Source: Octopus vulgaris
Lineage: Eukaryota
Assembly: GCA_951406725.2 (NCBI GenBank)
Contig: OX597823.1
Coordinates: forward strand, 4,092,001-4,156,000
Reading direction: 5' to 3'
DNA length: 64,000 nt
This document shows, piece after piece, positions 2,305 to 43,527 of the stretch. The stretch's first letter is position 1. The number at the start of each line of letters is the position of its first letter. The notes under the pieces are model-generated. The model ran no database searches. It was not told where the DNA came from and saw nothing but the letters and a program-made list of their open reading frames with translations. The position numbers and the translations under genes are program-made.

Positions 2305-2397
2305 ATCAAACTTGTAAATATTCGAGCTGATGAAATAGTTGATGGAAACCCTAAATTAACTCTAGGACTAATATGGACTATTATTCTACATTTCCAA
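2305..2397 (+). CDS. shot: Spectraplakin (shot/DST/MACF1/plectin-like) exon: C-terminal helix of CH1
   Basis: ttcatttcAG|ATC...CAA|GTAAGT; 93 nt, [31 protein letters not shown], the canonical plakin/spectraplakin CH1 end; phase 0/0. Confidence 0.97.
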
Positions 2398-16645: not shown

Positions 16646-18180
16646 CCTTTTGCCAGCAGTGGTGGAGTATATTTTTGTGTTAGACATCAATAGTGTTGTG
16701 TGTGTAATATGCCTGTCCCATTACATCTATGTATTTACTCAATGCAAAAACCATCATGTTGAGCCGATTAACTGCAGCATTTGTTTGGAGATAAATGTCT
16801 CCTCTGGATGTTCTGTGTTAATGATGACATGGACATTCTCTCCAGACAAAACACCTCAGTTAATTTGCCCTCTCGTGATGTGTTGTCATTAACTATGACA
16901 CAAATGGCTATCTTAATTCAAAGCTATTTATGTTTCAGCCAACAGATTTTTATACGATACTTATTACGCTTGTGGCTGAGCTAGCAATGATGTATGTTGT
17001 ATATATATATATTGAATTACACAATAGTTATATAGCTTGTCTGCGTGTGTGCATACATGTGTGTGTGTATATTGTCTTAGGAAGGGGTTGCGTGTTATAT
17101 AGGAGTTGTGCTCTTGTGTGCAAGTGTTGTATAACACAGATTATTTTTATGTCGTCAAGGCAGAGCCATGATGAACTTTGTGAACAGCCATAACATTTTT
17201 ATGTGAGAATTATGTTGATTGATTCTGGAAACCATCCTCTCCCAACAAATCGATTCTTGTTGCTTACAATATTTTCATCAGATGATTCTACTCCAGACAT
17301 AATTCCTCCCTCCAGGATCAATAAAATAGTACCAGTTATATACTCGGGTTGATATTAACACCCTCCTCCTCCTAAAATTGCTGGCATTGTGCCAAAGTAG
17401 AACGAATGACTTCTTCCTTTATTCTCTCACTTGACTTTCTACAAATGTTTTATTTCAAGTATCTTGGGTGTACTTCACGTGTTCTGTGCTTTCATTTAAT
17501 CGTTAGCAACTGAGGTGATGATGATGATGGTGAGGAGGCAGAGGAGGCAATTGTTGTCTACGTCTGTTTGTTTGCTATTATCTATTATTATTATTAATTT
17601 CTTTTTCTATGCTGCTTTCGGGGATGGGGGCTAATTCATTTCTTTTTTTTTTTTTTTCCATGTGTATATTATGTAAGTTGGATTATAATATATTGAGGAA
17701 ATTCTGTACAGAATGTGTGTTATCTGGGCTGCTGTATTTTCGATGGGTGAGGTGGCGGGTAGGTAAGCTATGTAGCAAACCTTGGGGCATCATCATCATC
17801 ATCATCATTATTACTTTTATTATTATTATTATTATTATTATTGAGGCAGTGAGCTGACAGAATTGTTAGCATGCTGAGCAAAAAACTTAGCAACATTTCG
17901 TCCATTGTTACGTTCTGAGTTCAAATTCCACCGTGGTCAATTTTGCCTTTCATCCTTTCAGGTTCGATAAAATAAGTACCAGTTACATACTGGGGTTGTT
18001 GTAATCGACTGTCTCCCTCTCCCCCAAAATTCAGGCCTTGTGCCTACAGTAGAAAGGATTATTATTGTTATAGTATAGATGTTCTTGTTTATTTCTCTTC
18101 GGAGCAATACCCAGTGTACCAGCTATGATGAGTGTTGTCTCACTGTTATCCCCCATGTGAGAGAGGTTTATTTCAATCCC

Positions 18181-33050: not shown

Positions 33051-34446
33051 ATAATGATAATAATATATTAAGTAATCATGTGATCAATTTGGTATGGCGT
33101 CAGTTTTTTGGCTGGGAAGTTTAGTGTTCTCTGTTCTATCCTTCAGTCTGAGCTGTATCTCGCAACCAACTTTAGCTGTCAACAATGCAAGTAAGACTGG
33201 TAGGAAAATAATTTGGTTGCAGGGTACCAAAATAATTGGCAATTATCGTTGTCCAGTTTATAGCTTTGTATTGTCCAGCTCAGATCTTTTTTTTCCTTTT
33301 CATTACATGTGAACAAATGATCAAGTGAATGAGTGAATGAATGAATGAGGGAATGAGTGAATGAATGAATGGAGAAGGAATGTATTTTTTTTCTTTTTTT
33401 TTTTTTTTGCTTCCTGAAACAGAAATGAAAATTTTAATTAGAATATGATAATTATCAATCAGTATATCAGCATGGATGTTTTCATTGTCGAGTTGGTTGT
33501 TGTGCAATAAGTCAAAACTTCAGGAAATTTCGCACCGGCCACTTTAATTGAGCCTGTTGAGTTGTGTTTATTCCACGAGTGGTGAGTAGCTGTAACAACG
33601 AATGTGTAAGCCACCCCTTATAGGTAGGCGGCCACAAATAACCAGATAGCTGCATCACTGCCATATTGATTAAGCTATTGACGTTAAATGTCTCTCTTCT
33701 TTCACTCTCTCTCTCTCTCTCTCTTTGTCTCTCTTTGTCTCTCTATCTCTGTCTCTGTTAATCTCCGGTGAATAGATTTCTGGTGATTGCATGAAGAGAG
33801 AAAAACAAATATATCAACTACGTAATACAATGTTAAGATCTACCCAGTGTAGACTAATATAGACTAATATATAGATATTCATATATTTATATTTATTTTA
33901 CAACAGCCGGTCTGCTCGGCTATTACACACATCTATGAATCTACTGTTTCTTTGTCAATCTTTCTTTCTTTCCTTCCTATAGCTTCTAGAAATATCTATA
34001 ATCTTCAAGTGAAAGTGAATCTTCAATATTTATTTTAGAATTTCTGAAATATTTATTGTTTCTTCCTTTTCTTTAACTGTCTTGAAAATGAAAACAAAAC
34101 TGTCCTTTACAAGTGATTTTAAAAATATTATTGGAAAAAAACCAATCGCTGTTCTATAATAGTGATTGACTGGTAATGTTATGTATTTTCTCTCCGTTAT
34201 CGCCAATGTTTAACATCAGTTTCTTCCACAAAATATTTTTCCATGTCTGTTGAATATCAACATTTCCAAAACCTGTCAGTTATGCATTTTTTCCTAGTTG
34301 AATATTTATTTATATATTTGAAACACATATGGGATAAGAAAATGTATTTTGGTTAATTTGCATAACACATGCAATTTTATTTTTTTAAATCTTCTTTTAA
34401 TCAATCAATTTAAAACAAAATAAAACAAAAAAACAAACAATAACAA

Positions 34447-34776
34447 ATGTCCAGATCATCTTTCTGGAAAGTCCTTAGACAAGCTCGGTCTCTTAGTCCA
34501 AGACCAATCTCCAAAGCTGCTTCTAAAACTGAAGAAACTAAAGAATCTGATTCTGATAACACTACTAATTATATTCCGATATGGAGATCCAACCATTTGG
34601 ACCAATGTCACCTCTTGCCTTCTTCACAAACACTGGGACCTTTACACCGTTGTGATGAGTGTGGATCTCTTAGTTATTGTGATCATAAAATGTGCCAAAT
34701 TAGTCTGACAATAAAAGTCAACCCCTGGAAGACTTTACAGCCATATGTTACCTTTAAAAGTTGCTGCCAGAGTTTG
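34447..34776 (+). CDS. Candidate alternative first coding exon (110 aa) for a CH1-less spectraplakin isoform
   Basis: Non-repetitive ATG ORF MSRSSFWKVLRQ...KSCCQSL ending at TTG|GTAAGA after exactly 110 codons (phase 0, same as CH2 exon acceptor); AT-rich UTR-like sequence upstream. Confidence 0.62.
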
Positions 34777-34871
34777 GTAAGAAAATAATTTCATTCTGTT
34801 CTATTATTATCATTCTGTCTCTTTCCTCTCCCCACTTTCTCTCTCCCCCACTCTGTCTGTCTGTGTCTGTC

Positions 34872-34902
<31 letters not shown>

Positions 34903-36647
34903 GTATTCCAATATTATGTCACAGCAACTGGCTCCACCCCCCCGCCCCATAAAATGCTGCTCTACCCTAGACCTCCTCTACTTCACCAGTTCTATTTTCA
35001 CTACAACATCAACCCCCTCCTACCCCCTCTCCTGTCTCCCCCCCCTGCATCTTTCCAGTCTCTTACCACCTACACTCCTTGCATCCTTCATCCTAATCCC
35101 TGTTTAATCCTTCTTCCCTACGGCTTCATCCATCTGTTGGCAACACAACCTCCCCATACCTTAACTTAATCGAACATTGACAACACATAACCCTAGCTAG
35201 CCATAGATGTTCTGAGTTCAAACTTCACCAAGGGGGACTCTACATTTCATTCTCCCAGGTTGCAGTGGTGTTGGGGGGTGAAATCTAACAATAGCATTAA
35301 CAATTAACATGCTCTAGTAATTGCCATGGAAAAAGCAAAATGACCCTTACCCCCACCAGCTGCTTTGGATGTGACCTTGTGCTGCCACCTTGTGAGGTTT
35401 AGGGTATTCCGTTCAATACCCAGTGGTGTATTCTTTCCTTGAGCAAGATACTTTCTTCCACGTTGCTCCAGTTCACTCAGCTGGCAAAAATACATTGTAG
35501 CTGTAATTCGAAAGGATCTGTGTCATGCTGAATCTCCTTGAGAACTACGTTAAGGGTCCACGGGGCTGTGGAATGTTCGGCCATTTGCATGTTAATTTCA
35601 CAAGCAGGCTGTTCCGCTAAACGGATCAGCTGGAACACTAGTCTCGTAGTCACTGACTGTGCCAGTTTTTTGATAACCTTGTATGTCTGTTATTAAATCC
35701 TTATTTACTTTCACCTGAGCAGTTAGCCAGCCTTGGTGGAATTTTGTTTCGCTTTCTCTTTCTCTGCCCCGCCCCCTCTCATTCTCAACTTACATTGATT
35801 AAACACAAACGCTCACATTATTGGGCCATCACAAAAAAAAAGAAGGAAAGAAAATCCCCAGCTGTCTGAGCCAACTGGTAACATGTGCATATTTGTGTGG
35901 TTGTGTGTGTGTGTGTGTCGTCGTCATTTAATCATGATTATCGTTTAACATCTGTTTTCCATGCTGGCATGGGTTGGACGGTTCAGCAGGGACTGGCAAA
36001 TCAAAAGGTTTCACCTTAGCTGTGTTTGTATTTATGCATATCTGTGCTTGTGTATGTGTCCCAGATCAAATGTAGCCGCAGTTCATATTTCATCATCATC
36101 ATCATTTGACGTCTGTTTTCCATGGTAGCATGGGTTGGACAGTTTGACTGGTGTCTGGGAAGCCAGGAGGCTGCACCAGGCTCCAGTCTGATCTGGCAGT
36201 GTTTCTACAGCTGGATGCCCTTCCTAACGCCAACTACTCCAAGAGTGTAGTGGGTGCTTTTTATGTGCCACCGGCACAGGGGCCAGAGGAGGCTGGCAAC
36301 GACCTCGATCGTCAAGGCGGCGCTGGCATTGCCCACGTTCGGATGGTGCTTTTTATGTGCCACCGGTATATAACATCTAACATCATGACTGCCACTTTAG
36401 GCAAGAAAAGGCATAAACATCACTACTTCCCCTGTGTACCCCTGTACATCTCAGTTTCAAAATAACTTTAGTTTTTGCCATTGTCACATTACATTTAAGA
36501 GGATTACTACATTACTGTGAGGGGGTGGGGTGAGGGGCTTGTGTTTTATTATTTATTTTATTATTTTACTTTATTTTTTTTTCAATTGTTATATTTGAGG
36601 ATGGTCATATTTTGCCAATTAAACACACACACACAATACATTTAGCC

Positions 36648-36679
<32 letters not shown>

Positions 36680-36876
36680 CATTATTATATCAAAGCTCTT
36701 TCTTTGTGCGTCCTGTGACATCTTCTGCGTCTCCTCTTGTTCTGCTTATTCCATTCTCAACCCACAATTTCACACCAATTGCGAAACAAATACATATTTT
36801 TTGTTTGTTTGTTCCTCTAAGCATGAAACTTAAAAGTTCTCATGAAGCTGAGTGATGGGGGGTGGTGTAAATAGTT

Positions 36877-37300
36877 CACCACCACCACCAGCATTTAACA
36901 GCAATGCCAGGAAAGAGAAGCCAGCACCACCACCACCACCACCCTGTCATCAACACCATCATCATTGTTGTCATTGCAATTGCCTTTGTCTTCATCCTTT
37001 ACAACCACTTCCACCACTTCTACAAGCAGCATCACTAACAAGCATCATAAGCATTTCATCATCGTCCTTTGTGATTGCCACCACCATCACCACCACCACC
37101 ACCACATTGTCCATCATTAACAGAACCATCGTTGCCATTTCATCCTCATTATCATCAGCATCACTGGTAGAAACATCATTATCATTTCATCACTAAACAT
37201 TACCACCACCACCACCACCACCACCACCGTAGTTATCATTCCCAGCATCAGCACTATCAGAAATGTCCTGACCATTTCACCCCCATCATCATCATCATCA
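36877..37300. repeat. (CAC/CAT)n low-complexity tract; similar tract at 14537-14740
   Basis: Degenerate trinucleotide repeats. Confidence 0.8.
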
Positions 37301-37594
37301 TATTTTTCCCATACTCAGATGTGTTTGATGAGGAAAATTATCAAACATGTTTTAAGTTAATTTCAACCACTTTTCTTTTTTTTTATATTTCTGGGTGGGA
37401 TTTTATTTTTAACCTTTTATTTCTTTTTTCTTTCAACTATTTTTGATTTATCTTACGTGACATTAGAGTTCAGGTTTAAAGTTCGGTGTTTCTTGTTTGT
37501 AATTTTTATATATATATTTTAAAATCTGGTGTCCTGTTGGAGGAGTTCCAAATTAGAACTAATATATATATACATACACTATGTATACACACAC

Positions 37595-37629
<35 letters not shown>

Positions 37630-39826
37630 CTACACACACACAATCACACATTGTTCACTGAGCTTTATATATATACACACAATCACACATATATTGTTTA
37701 TTGAGCTTTATATATATAAATAAGGTATTAGATGATGTAAGCCATTTAGTATAAGGTCATGAGAAAGAGACTGCGTAAAGCATTCCAGGATCGATGAAAT
37801 AAAGTACCAGCCAAATACTGGAAAGGGTGTTGTTTATGTTATCAACTTGACACCTCCCCCTCAAATTGAGGACCTTTCTGCCTAAATTCGACACAGTTTT
37901 CATCTGGTGATGGGTGTTGGTGGTTGGTCGCATTTGTTTTTTGCTTTATTTTTAAAGGTTTTCCATTTATATTTTTGCCTCCTGTTCTACATAAAAACTA
38001 CGATTAACTATATCACGTTCGTTAGTCCAAGGCCTTAAGTTAATCTTGTAATTTTAGAAATAAGAAGATGAGTTGATTTTTATAAAGGTTAATGAATACG
38101 AGATGTCTGAGTAAATGATGTAGATGGTTTTGATTTGCATAACAACCGTCTGTCTGTGTATTGAGACATACATTTAGGCTGACGTACTATCGTAGTCTGC
38201 TTTCTTTGTGCTGTTGATAACACAAGGGATTGGATTGTAAATAAAGGAACGGAATTGAAAGACTAACATGTAGTTTGCTAGCATTAAAGTTTTAAGTTTC
38301 AAATCTTGCCACACTTGAATTGACCTTTAATACATTTGGGTATAATAAAGAAGTTACTTTAGTAGCATATTCAGACTTTTGTTACCATATTTCTGTTATT
38401 AATTCACTTTGTTTCAGTTAATTTTGAAAGTAACAGAGAATGGAATAAAATAATTTTCCATTATTAAGCTGGTGAAGCACGACGTTTGAACATTGGTCCA
38501 CACTGAGGTGATGACAGGTGACCCCTTGGGAGAAATGCTGTGCTTGAGAAGACCTAGCAAGCCAAGTGAGACCATAACTGTGGCCTATGCCAGTGCAGCA
38601 TAACCAACCCATTTAAGAGTACTCTTCAATCATTGGGCAATAAACTGCACTTGCAAAAACCTCTTGAGGCAAGTGAAGTCATCATTGTGGTCAATGACAG
38701 TACCGCATGATTGGCACCCATGCCAGTGGCACGTGGAAAGCACCATTCAAGCATGGTTGATGCTAGTATTGCCTGACTGGTCCTGTGCTGGTGGCACGTA
38801 AAAAGCATCATTCAAGCATGATTGTTGCCAGTGCCGCCTGACTGGCTCTTGTGCCGGTGGCACTTAAAAAGCTGAATTTACCAATTACAAACCAACAAAA
38901 TTCTCTGTAGTGCTTTTTACTGATGTGAATTTTCTACCACTGACGGTACCTACACCGAGTAAAGCAGACCTGATTTAAGTTCCTTGTCTATGGCACCATT
39001 TCTCAACAATGGAAACTTTACAATTGTTTAAATCAGTTGACGAATCTAGAGAATATTAATAAATGATTAAATAAGATCTTCATGAACCGAGGAGGTGAGG
39101 TGGGGGGGTAATAAATTTGATAATATATTTTTTTCTTTTTTTACTAACCACCAGCATGTTTAGATGTTTTATTACAAAGAGTTTTTATTACTGGTCAGTT
39201 TGACCAGAGTGATTGCAACTTCACAAGAATCTTTGTTGCAATGCCAGTATAACTTCCTTGTAATTTCACACACACACAATCATACCCATGCGTGCACCAT
39301 GTTATTTTAGGCTTGTGGGTCAAGTGCTTAATAGCACATAAGTTTTATAAGTTTTAAATTATGAAATCAAATCTGGTTGTGACTTACTTTACTTTTTATC
39401 ACTCTGTTATAATTAAAATAATTATTAATTTTCTAGAGCCATTTCATTTTACTGGACTTTTCAAGCTTACAGAAGCTAGCCTTCTGTCACTGAATAATAA
39501 TTTGTTAATATTTCTTTCGTCACCAGAACTTGTTAAATCCAACATTAATGAACATTACAGCAACTTTTCTGTTCTCTATAAAGTCTAAGCCTTGTTCTTA
39601 CAAGTCGGTATTTTCCTTATTCTGGCCTTTGTCCCCTCTTCTATTTCATAAAGGAAGCTAATTAATCCAATATAAAAATGTTGTTATGTTTGCAGAGGGG
39701 ATAGAGTAACATTGCTGTTTTCCTTCAAACAGTAGAGAGGCTTTAAAATAGCAGAGACAGAGAATTGCTTTAATATTCTACATCAATGAAATAACCTCAA
39801 TATTTTTCTCTTTTTCTTTTCTCTAG

Positions 39827-39993
39827 ATATCTGATGTCGTTGTGCCTGGCCAGCCCGAAAACCTTACTGCTAAAGAAGCTCTTCTCCTATGGAGTCGCCG
39901 AACAACAGAGGGCTATCCTGGTATTAAAGTTACAGACTTCTCTACAAGCTGGCGGGATGGCAAAGCCTTCCTTTCCATAATCCACAGACACAG
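39827..39993 (+). CDS. shot: Spectraplakin exon: start of CH2
   Basis: Long pyrimidine tract, ctctAG|ATA...AG|GTAAGA; [56 protein letters not shown]; phase 0/2; continues ...HFQ in frame. Confidence 0.97.
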
Positions 39994-41555
39994 GTAAGAG
40001 TTGAAAGATCTTGTAGATTATGTAGCTTCACTTTTACCATTATATGCCTGTCTTTCTGATTATTTGTTTCCTTATTAGACTAACTCATTCTAGCATGAGA
40101 AAGTGAAATGATTGTAGATTGGCAGAATCAGAACATCCTTATGGTGTCTGTTCTGATTTTCCACATTCTGAGTTCAAATCCCACCAAAGTCAGCAGTCTC
40201 TTTCCTTCCTTTGGAGTTAATGAATTACTGGTCAAGTATTGGGGTTGATGCACTCAGCTGTTCTCTCTTTTCCACCAAAAATTCAGGGCTTGTACCTATA
40301 TTTGGAACAGTTGTTATTCAAGGGTGGGGGGGAATTGGGAGAATTGGTAGAGCATCAAGCAAAATATCTTGTATTTGGATAGAGCGCCTCTGTTCTAAGG
40401 TCAAATTACACTGAGGTCGACTTTGTCTTTCTGGGGTCATCATCATTATCGTTTAACATTCGCTTTCTCTGCTGGCATGGGTTGGACGGTTTGACTAAGG
40501 ACTGGCAAGTCAGAAGGTTGCACCAGGCTCCAATCCGATCTGGCAGTGTTTCTACAGCTGGATGCTCTTCTTAATGCCAACCACTCCAAGAGTGTAGTGG
40601 ATGCTTTTTACATGATACTGGCATCGACCACGCTTGAATGGTGCTTTTTACGTGCCACCAGCATGGGAGCCAGTCAGGCGGCACTGGCACCAACCATGCT
40701 TGAATGGTGCTTTTATTGTGCCACTGGCGGTCAATAAAATAAAACACCAGTCAAATACTAGGGTTGATCTAATCAAATTAACTTCTGCTCCTAAATTTCA
40801 TGTTTTGTGACTGTTAGAAACAATTATTATTTCAGTGGCAAAAATGGTTAAGATTAATGTCTGCATTCTAAGCATGTGCCTGTAGATTGGAGAACAATAG
40901 TTGTGTGAGGGTTTGTGCCTTTGGTGGTCAGGGTAAACCTGGTTCTGGGAGGTTCCTTGTTTGGTGCTAGTTTGAGGTTTTCCTGTAGCAGGAGGACAGC
41001 ATCATAAATACGTGAACATACCTTATATATTATATATACTTTTCTCTTGTTTCATCTTTCTTCCCCACCCATCTTTTATATAACCCCCCCCACACACACA
41101 CAGGTTGTAGACTATCATTGTGATGACCCCTTCATCTATGCCCCTATAGCAACTGTCTTTACTTCTGAGTTCAAATTCCACCAAGGTTGACTTTGCCTTT
41201 CATCCTTTCTTGGTTGATAAAATAAGTACCAGTTAAATACTGGGGTTGATGGAATCGATTTAAGCCTTCCTCTGAAATTGCTAGCCATGTACCAAAACTT
41301 GAAATTATTATTATTGTTGTTGTTGTTATTTACCTGATACAAGACTGTTTGTGTCTCAGTTTAAAAGTTAAAATCATGCGTGTGGCTTCATGCTGATGGA
41401 TGTATCTAGCTGTGTCTATCATTAAGGATACAAAGCCCATCAGTATCTGGGCTATCAAATGCTGACCTTAGGTTGTGTCATCCTGTCTCTAGCAAAGGCA
41501 CCTAACTTTCTATCACACAGTCTATAAATAGATGCCAAATGTAAACATTCACAAA

Positions 41556-42206
41556 CTAGAAGGGTTGCCGGTCATATAACAAGAAAAAAGCAAAATACGT
41601 CTCTGAAGGTATGAGTCCCAATAATGCTTCTAAGAAATTCAGATCCTCCTAAATTTTGCAATGGGACAAGGTTGATTGTGAAGACATTTCCACCTAATGT
41701 GACAGAAGCTGCCATCATCAATAGATGTGCTTCTGGGGAAGAGGCTTTCATTCCAAGAATTCCAATCAAACCAACAGACTTGCCATTTGAGTTCAAATGA
41801 ACACAATTCCCAGTGTAACTTTGCTTTGCAATGGCTATTGATAAAGCTCAAGGTCAGTCTTTGAAATCTGCTGGCTTGCTTTTCTCGTGGTCACCTTTAT
41901 GTTGGTTGCTCCAGGGTAGGTAATTTGCAAGACTTTTATTTGTCTATGCCCCAAACCAGAAAACAAAGAAGTTCTTATGTAATTTCCTTCAACATAAGTG
42001 GTAGAATTTATCTCCTTTCATAAAAGGGGTAAATTTTGTATTTTCGGTTATTATTATTATTTTTTGTATTATGAATTCAGAATTGATTTCCCAATTGAAG
42101 AATAAATTGAATTTAGAATGACAAATTTCTATACAACATATTTTGCTTTTTTCTTCTAATATATAAGGAAAAATTTTATTCCTGGGCCACGCCGGGTGCC
42201 TCTGTA
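41556..42206 (+). mobile_element. Helitron remnant: PIF1-family helicase C-terminus plus 3' hairpin
   Basis: From 41603: LKV*VPIMLLRNSDPPKFCNGTRLIVK...FIPRIPIKPTDLPFEFK*TQFPV*LCFAMAIDKAQGQSL, then GHLYVGCSRV; GC-rich hairpin CCTGGGCCACGCCGGG near 42181. Confidence 0.88.
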
Positions 42207-42293: not shown

Positions 42294-42409
42294 ACCTGAC
42301 TTAGTCGATTATAGGCAGGTGCGAAGAAATACTCCACGACAGAATCTAAATTTGGCTTTTAACATTGCTGAATCTGAATTTGGCGTTACCAAATTGCTGG
42401 ATGCAGAAG
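42294..42409 (+). CDS. shot: Spectraplakin exon: CH2 middle
   Basis: ttttAG|A...G|GTAAAT; PDLVDYRQVRRNTPRQNLNLAFNIAESEFGVTKLLDAE; phase 2/1. Confidence 0.96.
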
Positions 42410-43420
42410 GTAAATTCTTATTTTCCTTAAAATGTTTATTTTTTAATTTCCAAAGTTGTTGACTTATTGCCAATGGATACGGAACCGATTTTTGTAGAGA
42501 ATAGTTACAGTCTTATTTGAATTTATCCTATTTATTATATTGCTGGTTGTAATTAGCATGAGTCTGTGTTGTCACTCAACCTGCTAGAAATAGTAGCAAA
42601 ATTACCCCTAAATCACACTCCACTGTCCTAAAAAAAACAGGATGCTTTCGATAGCATAGCTCTAGAGGAACACAAGGTTTTCAATACCCATACTGACAGT
42701 CATTGGTCATTTAAGGGCTGCTAAAATAAACAAACATAAATATATGATGTTATTCTCTTTGCACACTGAAAAATAAAGGCTATTACCCTGGTATGTTTCA
42801 TGGCTGGTTGGCCACCCTTCAGAGGATATGTACCCCTCATTCTCTTGCCCACGGAGAAAACTTAATACATATAGCTATTTAGATCAAACACAAACTAGGA
42901 CAGCCTAGCTGAAATTTGCACATTATGCATTTGTCAATGGTAGAATTAAGGAAATCTCCTTAATTTTACTCTGTGTGCAAAGAGAAAAAATAAGAGATGT
43001 GTACATTTGTTGTCTTTCCATAGCAATGAGAGTATTATAAACGATAGGCTAACTACATTATTATTATTATTATTATTATTTTTAGAAATACACAAACACA
43101 CAAAATTTCAGGCCTTACGCTTATAGTAGAAAAGATTAATTTAATCAGAATTTGCAAAGTGACTCAAGGGACAAGAGTTTCATACAAGCCTTTGAATCAC
43201 TTTGTAACTTCTACTAAGTAAAATAATAGTATATATATATATATGCATTTTGTGTGTGTAAAGAGCAAGTTTTACTATCAGCATTTAGTATAAGAAACAT
43301 TAAGCCCAAACAGTGTAATACTTATTGAGTTCATTCTTTAATTTAAGCTTTAGTTCCGGTACTATTGGAAGTTGGAAAAAGACTTAACTTGGAACTTTTT
43401 TTTTTCTTTCCTTGTTGCAG

Positions 43421-43527
43421 ATGTCGATGTTCAGGAGCCAGATGAGAAGTCTGTTATAACATACGTGTCGTCATTATATGATGTCTTTCCAGATGTTCCG
43501 AGTGTTGAACAATCTCTAAGAGATAAT
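43421..43527 (+). CDS. shot: Spectraplakin exon: CH2 end
   Basis: ttgcAG|AT...AAT|GTAAGA; [36 protein letters not shown] (PDEKS-ITYVS motif); phase 1/0. Confidence 0.96.

Follow-up and report, generated by a model that had tools for sequence, protein, structure and literature searches.

An alternative coding exon within the CH1-CH2 intron of a probable Octopus vulgaris spectraplakin gene is spliced directly to CH2

The window, a stretch of 64,000 nucleotides of the Octopus vulgaris genome, carries part of a gene that we read, from its tandem CH and GAS2 exons, as an octopus spectraplakin of the Shot/MACF1/dystonin type (Table 1). An N-terminal tandem CH1-CH2 of the plectin/MACF1 type is present, and the best PDB matches of the CH region are plectin (E 1.3e-30) and MACF1 (E 3.3e-27). 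The last CH1 exon matches positions 78-108 of the Pfam CH profile (E 1.6e-4), and two earlier CH1 exons were found upstream of the window. The intron between CH1 and CH2 extends over 37.4 kb and contains the open reading frame (ORF) at 34447-34776 with which we are concerned here. The CH2 exons are spliced at GT-AG sites in contigs of sequencing runs X1, X4, and X7, and the first two are 100% identical to an Octopus bimaculoides RefSeq protein. Matches to the GAS2-related domain lie on the same strand about 131 kb beyond the end of the window (assembly C10:4287503-4287856), and we infer that the GAS2 and CH exons belong to one transcript. The IKLVNIR of CH1 (2305-2325) and the SSLYDVFP that follows CH2 (43421-43527) match, respectively, the actin-binding motif and the FAK/Src site reported in Shot, MACF1, and dystonin (10.1101/122010).

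Table 1. Features at the CH1-CH2 region of the octopus locus (window positions).
Feature	Position	Strand	Remarks and evidence
Last CH1 exon (IKLVNIR...ILHFQ)	2305..2397	+	Phase-0 donor; skipped by the alternative isoform; translation, boundaries
Stretch of the alternative exon before the ATG, unspliced (probable 5' UTR, at least 681 nt)	33766..34446	+	12 upstream ATGs, A-rich end; X1 contig
110-aa lead, encoded by the alternative (probably first) exon	34447..34776	+	ORF, contig splice, homologues, RefSeq model; single copy
Residues 1-20, basic-hydrophobic segment with RSLSP	34447..34506	+	Predicted membrane- or partner-binding helix; conservation, BH score
Residues 64-83, Cys/His cluster, core LGPxHxCxxCG...C...C	34636..34695	+	9/20 identical to P0002; alignments
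Intron, GT-AG, phase 0, 5,050 nt	34777..39826	+	Spliced contig ends in X4, X7; RefSeq model junction
First CH2 exon	39827..39993	+	Acceptor common to CH1 exon and alternative exon; Pfam CH E 1.9e-9
Second CH2 exon	42294..42409	+	Joints in runs X1, X4, X7; translation
Third CH2 exon, with SSLYDVFP	43421..43527	+	Joints in runs X1, X4, X7; translation

The frame opens with the ATG at 34447 and runs for 110 codons up to TTG and the donor GTAAGA (34776/34777), beyond which it would read V-R-K-stop. The acceptor at 39826/39827 is of phase 0, the CH2 exon opens with ISDVVVPGQ, and contigs of runs X1 and X4 start exactly at 39827, as at a branch point. The initial annotation, made from the letters alone, had described an ATG-started ORF in the large intron, with a stop three codons past a donor in phase with the CH2 exon, and these sequence facts all hold; the donor, called strong there, is rather an ordinary one: in a rough matrix of consensus values it scores 7.9, and three further donors of the gene score 8.1, 9.5, and 11.4. 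Among the 19 ATG-to-phase-0-donor candidates in the CH1-CH2 intron this ORF is the longest, the next being of 50 aa; block shuffles of the intron, with a median of 42 aa, reached 110 aa once in 200, and on the reverse strand the value is 35 aa. The second-longest candidate (17609-17758) is within the range expected by chance from the shuffle median.

Twenty-four runs were listed, 20 of which hold part of the stretch, and six of the 24 were compared; no run holding the stretch is recorded as RNA, and the RNA status is a guess whose sole backing here is the GT-AG joints. In X4 (organism A) and X7 (organism B), which come from different studies, the loose contig ends past 34776 are the first 30 nt of the CH2 exon, the X7 end differing from the window at two of the 30 letters; the junction 34776->39827 was seen in both of the two RNA-guessed runs of one comparison. 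The X1 contig halts at the same donor position with 31 letters left over, the X17 contig (organism D) continues past 34776 into the intron, and coverage in X5 spans only 34479-34707, short of the donor. X20 (organism E) gave no contig over the stretch; neither it nor X5 speaks for or against the splice. The check proposed at the outset, spliced reads across 34776->39827, thus finds the splice in contigs of X4 and X7 and also in a RefSeq model described below. We regard as confirmed that the ORF at 34447-34776 is a real, spliced alternative coding exon that joins CH2 and skips CH1, and the product is almost certainly a CH2-only spectraplakin isoform.

Contig depth was 4-11 on the alternative exon vs 65-139 on the CH2 exon (X1, X4, X7), a poor measure that gives a weak hint of a minor isoform. 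No contig compared carries the lead on a full-length transcript reaching the GAS2 exons, and no longer protein bearing the lead was found among 62 and 1,147 candidates spanning about 195-2000 aa, a range that full-length isoforms exceed. The lead has a single protein match in the assembly and its DNA is also single-copy. An origin of the lead from a transposon or a paralogue was rejected on the basis of that single protein match, the only DNA matches being two short ones to the A-rich stretch before the ATG.

Upstream of the ATG, the X1 contig covers 33766-34775 with no joint and ends at a TC microsatellite, such that the alternative exon is at least 1,011 nt long, unspliced from 33766 on, and its 681 unspliced nucleotides before the ATG hold in-frame stops. 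We infer that this is a first exon with its own promoter; contigs cannot show transcript starts. An X7 contig piece (33477-33659), covered about as deeply as the exon, lies upstream of the TC microsatellite; it may extend the 5' UTR, in which case the start would lie further upstream. M1, with C at -3, is preceded by 12 ATGs in the contig-covered 5' part, features that may damp translation. The in-frame M82, with A at -3, was considered as the main start and rejected, being absent in the homologue P0002.

A phmmer search with the lead over 1.84 billion representatives returned three proteins at E <=0.001, with no fly Shot and no fly or vertebrate lead among them. P0001 is 92% identical to the lead and P0002 about 45% (E 7.7e-12; five near-identical members); both have the same start Met and read SL-VR at the position of the window's donor, which suggests that P0002 has the same phase-0 donor. 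The remaining one, P0003 (E 2.9e-6), a 622-aa tandem repeat, was dropped as a compositional match, and a profile search near the length of the lead gave no new relative (2 of 64 candidates). The O. bimaculoides RefSeq entry XP_052827051.1 (P0004), an automated model named 'uncharacterized protein LOC106880762 isoform X10', already holds the lead N-terminus and the junction 34776->39827, so that to call the N-terminus novel was an overstatement; the lead is annotated but unstudied, and the sequence of the lead itself is new. The 'isoform X10' of the name implies more isoforms at the locus. Compared with the window, the model has R11K, H50N, C54H, and L87P and lacks S34-D35 (four substitutions and a 2-aa gap); as X7 shows the same differences, the two were not counted as separate species.

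Like the window, XP_052827051.1 has the orthologous lead and the same junction; unlike it, the model ends at 231 aa. Its residues 204-231 read into the intron after the second CH2 exon (window 42410-42460), where the read-through of the window gives GKFLFSLKCLFFNFQSC-stop. Since the contigs of X1, X4, and X7 splice past this read-through, the 231-aa product is probably a split-gene artefact, although a short retained-intron form could still lie behind it.

Close species give a mixed picture of constraint, one of the checks that had been proposed. Between X7 and the window the ORF has six differences in 324 nt plus one in-frame 6-nt gap, vs 62 differences in 930 nt over three non-coding pieces (Fisher p 0.0005); these are three of the four non-exon X7 pieces among the matches listed, each with a single match in the assembly, the fourth (41602-41811) being left out as a repeat. 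Five non-synonymous changes stand against 17.4 expected from the non-coding rate (a ratio of 0.29), and synonymous changes in the ORF are few as well, with 1 against 4.6 expected (p 0.055). The ORF thus changes less than the non-coding DNA, but non-synonymous changes are not rarer than synonymous ones (5/261 vs 1/69 sites, p 1.0), the ratio within the ORF being not below 1, and all three listed changes of organism D are non-synonymous. The frameshifts or stops in relatives that would have spoken against the exon did not appear in organisms B and D, P0001, or P0004. From the alignments we judge the lead to be under constraint, for which the deeper homology to P0002 is stronger evidence than the close-species counts.

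Identity to P0002 is unevenly distributed, with 16/20 in residues 1-20, 5/22 in the next block, 6/11 in residues 43-53, 3/10, 9/20 in residues 64-83, and 8/27 at the end, such that three blocks are kept: residues 1-20, IP.xR..xLDQ, and LGPxHxCxxCG. The basic leader is the best-conserved part of the lead (16/20 vs 31/90 for the rest, Fisher p 0.0003). Residues 1-28 carry a net charge of +7, and the R/K/S-rich, acid-free character first reported for these 28 residues is borne out, E29 being the first acidic residue; the leader of P0002 is acid-free to residue 24. The BH score of residues 1-19 is 0.65 in the window, P0001, and P0004 and 0.92 in P0002, above 0.6 in all four leads, that of the window only marginally; for lipid-binding motifs, 0.6 has served as the threshold (10.1101/2023.09.28.559937). 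Residues 3-14 do not exceed shuffles in hydrophobic moment (p 0.29; 0.54 in P0002), and therefore charge drives the scores. AlphaFold on a 6-row alignment was uninformative, with a mean pLDDT of 38 and values <50 for residues 1-151.

The lead has Cys residues at 54, 69, 72, 78, 83, 106, and 107. Both C69-x2-C72-x5-C78-x-H80-x2-C83 and KSCCQ are present as described, but only part of this is kept in P0002, namely H67, C69, C72, C78, and C83, whereas H80, C106, and C107 are not, the Cys/His spacing is shifted by one residue, and M82 has no counterpart. Additional neighbouring Cys are present in homologues (YC, CC, FCCC), as would suit an S-acylation cluster. That the lead belongs to no known family also stands: a Pfam scan gave no match above cut-off, the sole match being Zn_ribbon_15 (E 0.43, 11.8 bits vs a cut-off of 28.9, in one of three members), and a PDB search gave no match at E 10. 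Measured against the known zinc-finger families, the lead shows neither a profile above the curated cut-off nor a fixed ligand spacing.

With its own lead spliced directly to CH2 and CH1 absent, the octopus isoform has the layout of the C-type or type-3 spectraplakins, and CH2-only isoforms with their own lead are a class already described (10.1101/122010). In Drosophila, Shot-PC (C-type, with the C* lead) joins its own lead to CH2 and has no CH1 (10.1101/122010; 10.1101/2021.11.21.469398). The likeness extends to a lead of Shot described as having no informative homology or known function; the octopus lead differs in its conserved basic leader and Cys cluster. The 2017 Shot review states that no function had been reported for the lead sequences of Shot (10.1101/122010), and a study of 2021 goes no further than suggesting a regulation of CH2 by the C* lead (10.1101/2021.11.21.469398). 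In vertebrates, MACF1a3 (ACF7-3) and DST/BPAG1a3 are described as CH2-only spectraplakins with a unique N-terminus (PMC4914211; PMC3352950; 10.1101/122010). BPAG1a3 has a lipid-anchor (myristoylation) motif, and a membrane role is proposed alike for the octopus lead; in contrast to BPAG1a3, position 2 of the octopus lead is Ser instead of Gly in all four sequences (window, P0001, P0002, P0004), and because Gly2 is lacking no N-myristoylation is possible. The initial annotation had pointed to plectin 1b, a short isoform-specific first exon of which, as here, could set the localisation of a plakin-family linker. The comparison fails in the signal-anchor: plectin 1b has a transmembrane one at residues 5-27 with a mean Kyte-Doolittle value of 1.49 (PMC2426950), whereas the octopus lead has no hydrophobic segment, its best 19-residue mean being 0.26 in the window (0.26-0.33 among the leads), and thus no transmembrane segment. 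A predicted likeness to the BH motifs of the polarity proteins Yurt and Miranda lies in a BH score >0.6, marginal here, with nearby Ser. We found no study of cephalopod spectraplakin isoforms in a literature search that left subscription journals mostly outside its scope.

As to what the lead might do, we tentatively propose, at a little short of even confidence, that the lead, through a helix of residues 1-20, anchors the isoform at a membrane in place of F-actin. The 110-aa lead would take the place of CH1 as the localising element, residues 1-20 would form a basic-hydrophobic helix binding acidic lipids, and some of the cysteines at 69-83 may be S-acylated, firming up the anchor. Phosphorylation of S15/S17 in RSLSP would release it; we take the invariant RSLSP beside the leader, from its kinase motifs, to be a possible phospho-switch. 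The C-terminal GAS2 domain would hold microtubules, and the isoform would then tie microtubules to the membrane without actin. Lacking CH1, it would bind F-actin weakly; CH2-only spectraplakins of fly and mammal are described as binding F-actin weakly or not at all (10.1101/122010; PMC3352950; 10.1101/2021.11.21.469398). A membrane role has precedent, since potential sites for myristoylation or palmitoylation are described in the leads of dystonin (10.1101/122010).

The same features of the leader also fit a mitochondrial presequence or a partner-binding helix, and these readings, like a zinc knuckle, are not exclusive of anchoring at a membrane. It is unlikely, though it deserves attention, that the lead is a protein-binding or inhibitory cap, in which the helix and IP.xR..xLDQ bind a partner or fold on CH2 and mask its residual actin affinity. 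The three short conserved blocks in a variable lead do look like linear motifs, for which calmodulin or a kinase/14-3-3 pair would presumably be candidate partners from the motifs, and the C* lead of fly Shot-PC has been proposed to inhibit the residual actin affinity of CH2 (10.1101/2021.11.21.469398). Against this, the SLDQ block has its Ser in P0001 and P0002 but Asn in P0004 and His in the window, and folding the lead with part of CH2 gave, at low alignment depth, no confident contact. We give a low probability to a zinc-binding knuckle at residues 64-83 (H67/C69/C72/C78/C83), which would act as a module for interaction or dimerisation, with the leader secondary. Its CxxCG, which we take to resemble zinc knuckles, is part of an HxCxxCG that is kept with two later Cys at 45% overall identity, but the off-by-one spacing, the loss of H80 in P0002, and the Zn_ribbon_15 and PDB results given above speak against it.

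We also doubt that residues 1-28 are a mitochondrial presequence that tethers mitochondria to microtubules or imports a short product. The segment is R/K/S/L/A-rich, positively charged, acid-free, conserved, and placed at the extreme N-terminus, and its R-x-L-S resembles, as we presume, a mitochondrial processing motif; nevertheless, the amphipathy does not exceed that of shuffles, the leads have no transmembrane or stop-transfer segment comparable to that of plectin 1b, and full import of a giant cytoskeletal linker makes little sense. A broader and similarly doubtful idea is that an actin-free spectraplakin arose independently in cephalopods, with a lead that docks on mitochondria by a presequence-like helix or on membranes by a new zinc- or acyl-switchable Cys module, and would tie organelles to bundles of microtubules, as in long axons. 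Such a device, if real, would differ from the vertebrate leads that target by a myristoyl group or a transmembrane segment. Finally, the exon might be mainly a non-coding alternative 5' exon, with the frame incidental or rarely translated and the protein start further downstream. The 12 upstream ATGs, the C at -3 of M1, the low contig depth (a poor measure), and the lack of an excess of synonymous change between close species agree with this; yet in P0002, at 45% identity, the Met is retained, the same frame runs over about 110 codons, the leader shows conservative changes, and the donor appears to have the same phase. No stop or frameshift occurs in B, D, P0001, or P0004, the in-frame M82 is not conserved, and we consider this reading highly improbable.

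Whichever role the lead has, the octopus exon extends the CH2-only layout to a mollusc at the same intron position, and a lead with three short blocks kept over 55% divergence offers defined residues to mutate. The picture of the spectraplakin family is unchanged by this isoform, which was already in an automated model.

Some minor observations were made around the CH2 exons. At window position 42362 an A>G difference is present in the X1 contigs (mixed, 37 of a depth of 135) and in X4 (all), and absent in X7; it turns AAC into AGC, Asn to Ser in CH2, and could reflect A-to-I recoding or allelic variation. Interspersed repeats of very high depth in runs X1, X4, X5, and X7 at 35112-36519, 40392-40743, and 41096-41447 are probably short mobile elements. 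A broken frame at 41600-41930, multi-copy in contigs, contains the words GTRL...RIP...QFPV...AQGQSL and presumably resembles the PIF1 helicase of a Helitron.
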